From a virus, in IMG/VR virus record IMGVR_UViG_3300034072_002191, positions 16,692 through 80,691 of that record: a stretch of 64,000 nt of DNA. One strand, given 5' to 3'. Below the pieces are notes generated by a model. It searched no databases. It saw only the letters and a program-made list of their open reading frames with translations, and was not told where the DNA came from. Made by a program: the position numbers and the translations under genes. Below are positions 46,806-48,600 of the stretch, piece after piece (position 1 is the first letter of the stretch; the number at the start of each line of letters is the position of its first letter).

Positions 46806-47335
46806 TGGTGACGGTCCGCGGGCGTGACTACCTGCAGCGCTACATGGGCAAGCTGCCCCAGGAGATCGAGGCAAAACTGCTGCGAGGCGCTGGCCGAACT
46901 GGTGGGAAGGTCGTTGCGGACGACGCGCGCGACCGCGCGCTGTCGGAGGAGGTCCGCGATAACATCGTCGTGAAGGTATCCAACCGGGATGGCCGGATCG
47001 TTGTCAGGATCACTGTTCGCCAGGGTTGGAGCTATTCGCTTGGCGTCTGGCAGGAATGGGGCACCGAACCGCACTTCATCAAGGTCGCCGAGGATCAGCG
47101 TCAGGGACGCAGCATCGGACGCATCAACAAGCTGGTGAAAGAGGAGTCGCTCGTGATCAACGGGCAGTTCGTCGGCGATACCGTGCACCACCCCGGCGCC
47201 CGCGAGGCGCCATTCCTCCGCCCAGCGCTGGACCTGCGCAGCGGCGACGCGATCGCCGCGGCACAGGCCTACATCAACAGCCGGATCGTCGGCGGAAAGA
47301 TCGTGGGCGCCGAGGACATCGAGGACGAGCAATGA
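46805..47335 (+). CDS. HK97 gp10-like tail component
   Basis: EWGT.PH, V.HPG....PFLRPALD. Confidence 0.88.
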   Translation: MVTVRGRDYLQRYMGKLPQEIEAKLLRGAGRTGGKVVADDARDRALSEEVRDNIVVKVSNRDGRIVVRITVRQGWSYSLGVWQEWGTEPHFIKVAEDQRQGRSIGRINKLVKEESLVINGQFVGDTVHHPGAREAPFLRPALDLRSGDAIAAAQAYINSRIVGGKIVGAEDIEDEQ

Positions 47336-47745
47336 CGGACGTCGTCGAGGGAGCGGACATCGTCGGTGCGCTGCTCCGCGATTTCACGGACCTCACCGCG
47401 ATCGTGCCGCCCGAGCGGATCAAGATCGGAGCGCTGCCCGAACAGGCGCCACTGCCGCAGGTGCTGATCAGCACCACCAGCACGGTGGAGCGCAAGCCCC
47501 TGACGCGCGGGGCGCTGGTGCGGACGGTCGAGCGGGTGTCCGTGCGCGTCCGCGCCGACAATCTGCGCGATCAGCGCCGTCTCCGCCGCCTGGTTGTTCG
47601 CTGCTGCGCACACCGGACGGGCGACATCGGCGGCGGTTCGGCCGTTTCGATCACCACCGACGGCGCTGGACCGGAGGGTATTGGCCTCGGCGGCGCTTTC
47701 GAACGAACCCAGGACCTCCGCGTCAGTCACGACGTCGCGGTCTGA
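47332..47745 (+). CDS. Tail completion/terminator protein
   Basis: MTDVVEGADIV.ALL...L.A.VP..RI..G.LP....LP. ATGA overlap. Confidence 0.8.
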   Translation: MTDVVEGADIVGALLRDFTDLTAIVPPERIKIGALPEQAPLPQVLISTTSTVERKPLTRGALVRTVERVSVRVRADNLRDQRRLRRLVVRCCAHRTGDIGGGSAVSITTDGAGPEGIGLGGAFERTQDLRVSHDVAV

Positions 47746-47774
47746 TCTTCCGCAAGCGCCGCGGCGCCCATGGA

Positions 47775-47854
47775 CCCCTCGTAGCTCAGGATGCGCGCGA
47801 AGAGCGCCCGGCACCCGCCGGGAGGTCGCCTGGTGAAAGTCCAGGCCGAGGGAG
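47775..47854 (+). ncRNA. tRNA-like cloverleaf lacking a canonical anticodon loop
   Basis: Acceptor CCCTCG/CGAGGG, U8A9, D-stem GCTC/GAGC, stem CCCGG/CCGGG with 6-nt loop, variable AGGTC, T-arm GCCTGG-TGAAAGT-CCAGGC. No CCA. Confidence 0.7.
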
Positions 47855-47880
47855 CGGCTTTACCACCAGAGGAGACGACA

Positions 47881-48081: not shown

Positions 48082-48153
48082 TCCCGTCGGCCGAGGTTGC
48101 GCGGCCGATGCCCGCCGGCACCGCCGGCCCACCGCCCATGAAGGAGTAAAATT

Positions 48154-48600
48154 ATGGGTCTCGAAACCGGAGCAGGGTCGTCGATCGCCATTTCGGTCGC
48201 CGCCCCCGCCACCCAGGACACCGCAGGCTATGCAGCGTTGACCTACACGGAAGGCGGAAACTGCGAGAAGATCGGCACCATTGGTGCGACCTTTGCGAAG
48301 ACTGAGTTTCAGCCCCTCAAGGGGCCGAAGCAGAAGCTCAAGGGCAGCCCCGACTATGGGTCGCTCCAGCCGTCGTTCGCCGTCGACGATACGGACGCCG
48401 GTCAGACGCTCTTTCGGACCGCCGCAGACGACGAGACGAACGCGCTCTTTTCGTTCCGTGTCACCAAGCAGAACGGCGCCAAGCGCTACTTCCAGGGGCG
48501 TGTTTTCGGCTGGTCGGAGACGATCGACGGAGCAGATCCTGTCGTCATGGCCGCCCCGACCGTCGAGATCTGCACGAAGGTTGTGAAGGCAGCCTCCTGA
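48154..48600 (+). CDS. Major tail (tube) protein
   Basis: PAT.D.AGY.AL, K.KGS.DYG, D.GQ, YF.G.V. AAGGAG RBS. Confidence 0.88.
   Translation: MGLETGAGSSIAISVAAPATQDTAGYAALTYTEGGNCEKIGTIGATFAKTEFQPLKGPKQKLKGSPDYGSLQPSFAVDDTDAGQTLFRTAADDETNALFSFRVTKQNGAKRYFQGRVFGWSETIDGADPVVMAAPTVEICTKVVKAAS

Follow-up and report, generated by a model that had tools for sequence, protein, structure and literature searches.

A tRNA-shaped cloverleaf that has no anticodon lies between two genes in the late operon of a siphovirus-like prophage. It was found in a window of 64,000 nucleotides (the whole stretch of DNA analysed here), which is part of an 80.7-kb IMG/VR provirus record. The cloverleaf is real, is not a working tRNA and cannot decode. 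Its sequence looks derived from tRNA-Asn, and it is carried by a 116-nt insertion specific to one lineage (Table 1). With a probability of roughly 40 %, the element may be a tRNA-derived, decoding-dead RNA that acts in cis within the late mRNA, as a processing signal of the RNase P/Z type or as a stabilising signal.

Table 1. Location of the cloverleaf, its neighbours in the window, the contigs from other runs that carry the insertion, and the related elements of other phages
Feature	Location	Strand	Basis or remark
137-aa gene, neck/tail-terminator position	47332..47745	+	No Pfam or PHROG family
Lineage-specific insertion, 116 nt	47746..47861	+	Between the stop of the 137-aa gene and the ribosome-binding region of the small ORF
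GC palindrome, 12 nt, GCGCCGCGGCGC	47756..47767	+	5' flank of the cloverleaf; small hairpin possible
tRNA-shaped cloverleaf without anticodon	47775..47854	+	Sequence reading, scans, covariance models, folding
Shine-Dalgarno GAGGAGA of the 66-aa ORF	47869..47875	+	Homologue in relatives directly follows the upstream stop
Small ORF, 66 aa	47881..48081	+	Conserved in relatives; no family assignment
Two hairpins before the Shine-Dalgarno of the major tail gene	48087..48128	+	Comparison of 13 sequences
Major tail (tube) protein gene	48154..48600	+	phrog_158, E 8.6e-13; Atlas neighbours are tail tube families
Carrier contig from run X2	14.7-kb contig		28 differences over 1001 nt
Carrier contig from run X8	spans 911 nt		37 differences over 911 nt
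Carrier contig from run X3	reaches 47823		
Family A element	L183:1016-1102	-	After terL
Family A element	L184:9534-9622	-	Before a major head gene
Family A element	L188:9568-9654	-	Ahead of an exonuclease/terL block
Family A element	L203:12195-12281	-	
Family A element	L204:2735-2821	+	Before terS
Family A element	L209:4096-4182	+	
Family A element	L230:5660-5746	-	

The structural module of the siphovirus-like prophage occupies the plus strand from ~37.9 kb, in the order terS, terL, portal, protease, capsid, head-tail adaptor, head closure, tail completion and the 137-aa gene, followed by the 66-aa ORF, the major tail protein, chaperones and the tape measure. An earlier reading made from the sequence alone had assigned the element to a late tail operon. 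This was right, with head-tail adaptor, closure and completion genes upstream and the major tail, chaperone and tape measure genes downstream. The 137-aa gene and the 66-aa ORF, which have the same orientation as the cloverleaf, are separated by the 135-nt gap that contains it. The start of the 137-aa gene overlaps the stop of the tail-completion gene (ATGA), and homologues with 39–86 % identity occur in all related proviruses. No promoter or terminator consensus was found in the gap, and no T-run terminator lies 3' of the element. Two other coding interpretations of this region were rejected. An in-frame ATG at 47791, inside the cloverleaf, would give a longer small ORF, but relatives begin this ORF at the position homologous to 47881, behind a Shine-Dalgarno sequence of their own, and of the five substitutions listed for 47791-47880 four would alter the amino acid. 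An ORF on the minus strand (47269-47814), which runs antisense to a conserved gene, is an artefact typical of GC-rich DNA.

Protein clusters at 90 % identity contain proteins of Sphingomonas azotifigens, which indicates that the host lineage is Sphingomonas. No near relative was present in the phage and plasmid collections, where the sole match was one of 62 nt in the capsid gene, and the major tail protein had no match at 1e-30 in 300 Alphaproteobacteria and 300 Burkholderiales. A search with the capsid gave many GTA/HK97-type matches with 31–46 % identity, which are not diagnostic. No tRNA genes were found anywhere in the 80.7-kb record. The siphovirus-like prophage is apparently interrupted by a Mu-like prophage on the minus strand (window 1-37000 and the first 16.7 kb of the record, L145), and its packaging genes begin directly after the end of the Mu-like element. 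The junction that follows the small ORF has structures of its own. The second of the two hairpins before the major tail gene, GCCGGC-N3-GCCGGC at 48114-48128, is invariant in 13 of 13 sequences compared, and relatives (L004-L023) have a GCCGGC-N3-4-GCCGGC hairpin ~20 nt before the major tail Shine-Dalgarno, within the homologous 75 nt. The sequence of the first hairpin varies among 13 relatives while its pairing stays. Together they resemble a cis element conserved across the phage group, which might serve to stabilise or process the mRNA.

The stems and spacers described in the sequence-only reading are all present, and each of the 21 stem pairs is Watson-Crick. The acceptor (47776-47781/47847-47852) is topped by a C47775/A47853 mismatch and is separated by TA (47782-47783) from a D stem of GCTC/GAGC (47784-47787/47802-47805). 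The D loop, AGGAUGCGCGCGAA, has 14 nt and is without GG at the usual place of G18G19. A single G at 47806 leads to the anticodon-type stem (47807-47811/47818-47822), which encloses a 6-nt loop, CACCCG (47812-47817), reduced to 4 nt if its C-G pair closes; no alternative register of the cloverleaf gave a 7-nt anticodon loop. The variable loop, AGGTC (47823-47827), is followed by a T-type stem of 6 bp (47828-47833/47841-47846) and a loop of UGAAAGU (47834-47840), which retains U54, R57 and A58 but not the standard bases at positions 55 and 56. On the 3' side, CGG stands where CCA is expected. The earlier description of the element as an anticodon-less tRNA mimic holds, given the 6-nt loop and the absence of U33 and CCA. 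With U and A at positions 1 and 5 of the T-type loop, a T-loop-type fold would remain possible.

A scan of both strands for cloverleaves with Watson-Crick pairs only, under lenient spacing, identified 47775-47854 as the sole site in the window. There were no such sites on either strand of 472 simulated windows (150+322), each of 64 kb and generated by a first-order Markov model with the dinucleotide make-up of the window. With G-U pairs permitted, cloverleaf shapes were common (~1.6 per simulated window), from which the rate for Watson-Crick pairs only was roughly estimated at ~0.002 per window. Such a cloverleaf is rare for one window, but not across hundreds of thousands of windows.

ARAGORN and Rfam, both proposed as checks in the sequence-only reading, did not recognise a tRNA. 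ARAGORN called none in the window at default settings and no gene at thresholds of 95, 90 or 80 %, and at 70 % it proposed only an implausible tRNA-Leu fold. Rfam gave nothing at the gathering score, which for the tRNA model (RF00005) is 29 bits, and this model had no match at E<=10 in searches of 95 nt, 401 nt or the whole 80.7-kb record; real tRNAs scored 49–80 bits with the same tool. Matches to s2m, sR38, twister-sister and group-II D1-D4-4 (9.5–14.8 bits) were at chance level and were rejected. The T-type arm at 47834-47846, GGTGAAAGTCC, accounted for chance-level matches to the 5' end of a group II intron domain and to twister-sister (9.5–10.5 bits).

Comparison with real tRNAs nevertheless recovered a signal of ancestry. 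The best alignment of the 80-mer to 38 real alphaproteobacterial tRNAs scored 23, with tRNA-Asn(GTT), whereas structure-preserving shuffles scored 11.7 +/- 2.0 with a maximum of 20. None of 500 shuffles reached 23, so that the likeness to tRNA extends from the shape to the sequence. When real tRNAs were ranked with a covariance model (R2) that had only the window element as its input, tRNA-Asn(GTT) from two genomes came out on top, with 39.7 bits. The element retains U8, A14, R15, A21, G26, AGGTC, G53-C61, U54 and A58. It shares with tRNA-Asn(GTT) the order and spacing of the cloverleaf (2 nt, 1 nt and the 5-nt AGGTC), the D arm TAGCTCAG...GAGC, four of five anticodon-stem pairs, the G53-C61, U54 and A58 already listed, and a 3' A-then-G that matches A72 and G73. 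It differs in its 6-nt loop without U33 or anticodon, its 14-nt D loop without a positioned G18G19, its T loop of UGAAAGU on a 6-bp stem, the C1 opposite A, the CGG in place of CCA, and its failure to be detected by RF00005 (E>10) or ARAGORN. Alphaproteobacterial tRNA-Asn(GTT) is the closest type, and the element looks to be derived from it.

Comparable elements were found in other phages. IMG/VR was scanned for a D arm with an enlarged loop followed by AGGTC, which returned real tRNAs together with elements that ARAGORN misses. Ten loci constitute family A (L183, L184, L188, L201, L203, L204, L209, L215, L219 and L230). Its members consist of an acceptor, TA, a GCTC/GAGC stem with a 12–14-nt loop, G, a 5-bp stem capped by the 6-nt loop GTMAAA, AGGTC, and a 6–7-bp T stem with an 8–10-nt T loop. 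Their loop sequences include AGAAYCTAGATA, the D loop is conserved as AGAAYCYAGAKA and some members end in AACCA. RNAalifold gave a cloverleaf of 22 pairs, nine of them with compensatory changes. ARAGORN called none of the members, RF00005 had no match to them at E<=0.1, and within late operons they have the orientation of the surrounding genes.

A covariance model of family A (R1) matched the window element along model positions 1-80 with 42.7 bits (E 5e-11), the sole match in the 64 kb. In the reverse direction, L184 was the best match of R2, with 44.1 bits compared with 39.7 bits for tRNA-Asn, so that the window element and family A are reciprocal best matches. However, real tRNAs reached up to 41.6 bits with R1, and because they score almost as well, the link between the element and family A is weak; the architecture is shared and common descent is unproven. 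The window element resembles family A in its identical D stem, 14-nt D loop, G26, 5-bp stem, 6-nt loop, AGGTC and 6-bp T stem, as well as in its position on the coding strand of a late operon and in being missed by ARAGORN and RF00005. It has CACCCG rather than GTMAAA and a D loop of AGGATGCGCGCGAA rather than AGAAYCYAGAKA, and the hosts and phage types are different.

At the junction that carries the insertion in the window, 13 IMG/VR proviruses and one metagenome contig pass from TGA to a Shine-Dalgarno sequence and ATG within ~20 nt. The flanking proteins of the 13 proviruses are 39–88 % identical to those of the window, and the homologous ribosome-binding region, ACCACCAGAGGAGA, follows the 116 nt directly. 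The absence of the element from these distant relatives marks it as a young insertion confined to one lineage, which the phage group as a whole does not conserve, and indicates also that it is dispensable for this phage type. The sequence-only reading had named a lack of conserved structure in relatives as one half of what would count against it, and this half applies to the 14 more distant relatives, which are without the element. The relatives that are without it already carry the conserved hairpins before the major tail gene. R1 had no match in the loci of relatives, there was no second copy of the element in the 80.7-kb record or in five whole related proviruses, and these five proviruses contained no tRNA genes. 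Exact 23-mers and 25-mers of the element had no occurrence in IMG/VR and the JGI metagenomes. Within the sequences searched, the insertion showed none of the multiple copies, terminal inverted repeats or target-site duplication by which REP- or MITE-type elements are identified. A 17-mer of the T arm had at least 120 matches in genome contigs of unrelated phyla, none of which extended beyond ~30 nt, and these were dismissed as chance matches. One distant relative has its own insertion of ~50 nt, with a perfect 16-nt GC palindrome, in the region homologous to 47746-47880 (L021:2075-2130). The junction is a spot that tolerates or attracts structured insertions.

Logan contigs from three other public runs, which belong to different studies (X2, X3 and X8), carry the insertion without gaps, in flanks that are ~96–97 % identical to the window. 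Among the differences listed, the X2 contig has one inside the insertion, at 47834 (the first base of the T-type loop), and the X8 contig has two, at 47815 (in the 6-nt loop) and 47861 (the last base); none is in a stem, and the sole two substitutions in the cloverleaf are both in loops. Judging from the totals and the order of the rows, 15 further differences probably fall downstream of 47877. In the upstream gene, 9.4 % (X2) and 10.9 % (X8) of the third codon positions are different, a rate that predicts 11–13 changes per 116 nt, and on the differences listed the insertion has diverged ~8-fold less than these neighbouring positions (Poisson P ~2-3e-4). The 20-nt spacer that follows the insertion carries three changes in X8, and the 115 nt before it carry one (Fisher P=0.010, among the differences listed). 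However, the deficit relative to the overall rate of the flanking gene is not significant (P=0.06–0.08, among the differences listed), and the quiet block in X2 runs into both flanking genes, so that a recent recombination tract is possible. Selection on shape, which the sequence-only reading had advanced, receives some support from the 21 intact pairs, the alteration of all loops, the confinement of the listed cloverleaf substitutions to loops and the ~8-fold lower divergence; it is limited by the comparison with the overall rate of the gene.

The same limits favour a neutral explanation, in which a fragment of a tRNA gene, from the host or another phage, entered a permissive intergenic spot by illegitimate recombination and remains as a young relic without function. 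Its intact stems would then reflect recency and GC-rich sequence. The confinement of the element to a narrow lineage, with 14 relatives that are without it, is as expected of a relic, and so are the absence of a significant deficit against the overall rate of the gene and the near-identical block of X2 that reaches into both neighbouring genes. Searches for a promoter, a terminator, terminal repeats and a target duplication had no result, and tRNA detectors miss the element. On the other hand, descent from a normal tRNA would require that all loops were rebuilt, with a D loop ~7 nt longer, an anticodon loop 1 nt shorter, two to four changes in the T loop and loss of CCA. None of 21 pairs is broken and the T stem is one full pair longer, while random decay would be expected equally in the 42 stem bases and the 38 other bases. 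Since X8 is substituted both at the last base of the insertion and 19 nt before its start, a recent transfer would have needed a near-exact tract of ~133 nt. In addition, similar covarying elements hold equivalent places in other phages. On this evidence a relic is less likely than not, and only a little less probable than a cis-acting signal.

Under the preferred reading of the element as a processing or stabilising signal, a structure resembling tRNA-Asn(GTT) would have entered the late operon of one narrow lineage of siphovirus-like prophages of Sphingomonas as the 116-nt insertion. The features for decoding (anticodon loop and U33, G18G19, psi55-C56 and CCA) would then have been lost, and the coaxial helix of acceptor and T-type stem and the anticodon-type hairpin kept. 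To judge by its position and orientation, the element would be transcribed within the late polycistronic mRNA. The host enzymes that process tRNA ends may act at its borders, with RNase P cutting at ~47774/47775 and the 3' cut, by RNase Z or a different activity, falling near 47853-47855; in the absence of cleavage, the compact fold may be a barrier to exonucleases. The effect in both cases would be to separate the head/neck message from that for the small ORF and major tail protein, with structured, stable ends on both.

Such a signal is plausible because of its analogy with known systems and because of the late-operon context of similar phage elements. In the tRNA punctuation of animal mitochondrial transcripts and in the MALAT1 mascRNA, tRNA or tRNA-like folds serve as cleavage marks that release the flanking RNAs. 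These systems are eukaryotic or organellar, with enzymes and substrates characterised by experiment, and their link to the window element is by analogy. In plant mitochondria, t-elements are non-canonical tRNA-like structures that direct the cleavage of mRNAs by RNase P and RNase Z (Forner et al. 2007, PMC1920247). They keep the T arm GGTTCRANYCC, by which they were found, and their ends were mapped experimentally (PMC1920247). Like them, the window element is a non-decoding cloverleaf embedded in presumed mRNA beside coding sequence and co-oriented with the flanking genes, and 5' cleavage by RNase P and 3' cleavage by RNase Z would be a further likeness. It differs in having GGTGAAAGTCC and not GGTTCRANYCC, and t-elements are organellar. 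With psi-C missing from the T loop and G18G19 from the D loop, the canonical elbow used by RNase P and RNase Z may not form. The low predicted probabilities of the D stem (3 %) and of the acceptor in mRNA context (0.45) and the 14 relatives without the element are points against processing.

Folding with ViennaRNA gave, for the isolated element, probabilities of 0.99 for the acceptor, 0.7–1.0 for the anticodon-type stem and 0.78 for the T-type stem; in a 201-nt context, those of the anticodon-type and T-type stems were ~0.9 and 0.53. The D stem is so rarely predicted because the enlarged D loop can fold into a competing GCGC/GCGC hairpin. High stability of the acceptor, anticodon-type and T-type helices (-39.7 kcal/mol) would suit an element that works through structure alone, as an exonuclease barrier, a target of RNase E/III or a transcriptional pause between the neck and tail genes, its tRNA ancestry being incidental. 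The conserved hairpins that relatives use at the next junction and the unrelated GC hairpin of L021 at the same junction are consistent with this, as is the absence of the elbow determinants of tRNA from the element. Stability alone is, however, unexceptional; compared with shuffles of the same composition, the 80-mer had z=-2.5, but in a 146-nt context the shuffles folded almost as well (z=+0.45). A simple hairpin would also be enough, as in the relatives, and the 3' side offers no T-run terminator. A role of structure alone is accordingly improbable.

Phages counter anticodon nucleases with tRNAs of their own, and the overall tRNA shape of the element, with an Asn-type acceptor and D arm, could be read as that of a decoy or sponge for tRNA-targeting defence nucleases or for proteins that sense tRNAs, as the sequence-only reading had proposed. 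Anticodon nucleases, however, recognise the anticodon loop, which the element does not have (its loop is 6 nt, or 4 nt when closed), and there is no CCA end for sensors linked to aminoacylation. The element would be embedded in mRNA, without a promoter or terminator of its own, relatives do without it and no defence or anti-defence gene lies beside it, all of which makes a decoy highly improbable. Still less probable is a function at the level of DNA, as an attachment site for the tRNA-targeting integrase of a satellite or island, or as the scar of one. tRNA genes, including those for tRNA-Asn, are common targets of integration, and the record does have one phage inside another (Mu-like within siphovirus-like), but no integrase, direct repeat or duplicated tRNA half was found nearby, scars duplicate the 3' part of a tRNA and not a whole remodelled cloverleaf, and the same intact arrangement is present in four data sets. 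A chance fold of GC-rich intergenic DNA without tRNA ancestry is very unlikely and the least probable of these explanations, since, despite the frequency of shapes with G-U pairs and the hundreds of all-Watson-Crick cases to be expected from ~0.002 per window in ~250,000 windows, the element is closer to real tRNAs than 500 of 500 structure-keeping shuffles, is matched end to end by an independent model from other phages and forms a discrete insertion conserved in four data sets.

Cleavage by tRNA-processing enzymes, if it occurs, would make the element a simple and portable means of setting the ratio of neck to tail-tube protein after transcription. The logic of tRNA punctuation known from organelles would then operate in bacterial viruses, as a counterpart of the plant t-elements. 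Natural relatives that differ essentially by the presence or absence of 116 nt form a ready-made comparison. If the element is only a relic, it documents the entry of tRNA-derived sequence into phage operons.

The RNAs of family A covary, are absent from Rfam and lie in late operons, which suggests a phenomenon wider than one prophage. Unrelated phage types might have repeatedly recruited decoding-dead tRNA shapes, with a 6-nt 'anticodon' loop, an enlarged D loop and a lengthened T stem, as punctuation of late mRNAs, with host RNase P and RNase Z excising the messages for the most abundant virion proteins. The window element would be a young instance of this, derived from tRNA-Asn and seen soon after its recruitment. 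Such a general rule is rather doubtful at present. Two further types of tRNA-shaped RNA were observed in phages. One, found at L197:419-503 (plus strand) and L220:6228-6312 (minus strand) between the portal and the scaffold/major head genes, is called by neither ARAGORN nor RF00005; a 4-bp stem with a 5-nt loop replaces the anticodon arm, and the T loop is TTAAAGT. The other consists of tRNA-like genes with a normal T loop and CCA (L189:926-1015, minus strand; L222:1749-1838, plus strand; L198, L210, L211 and L229), which have a 7-bp stem with a GCAA tetraloop instead of an anticodon arm. RF00005 gives 47 bits for the L189 copy, and genes of this type lie inside tRNA arrays on very large phage contigs (90–223 kb).
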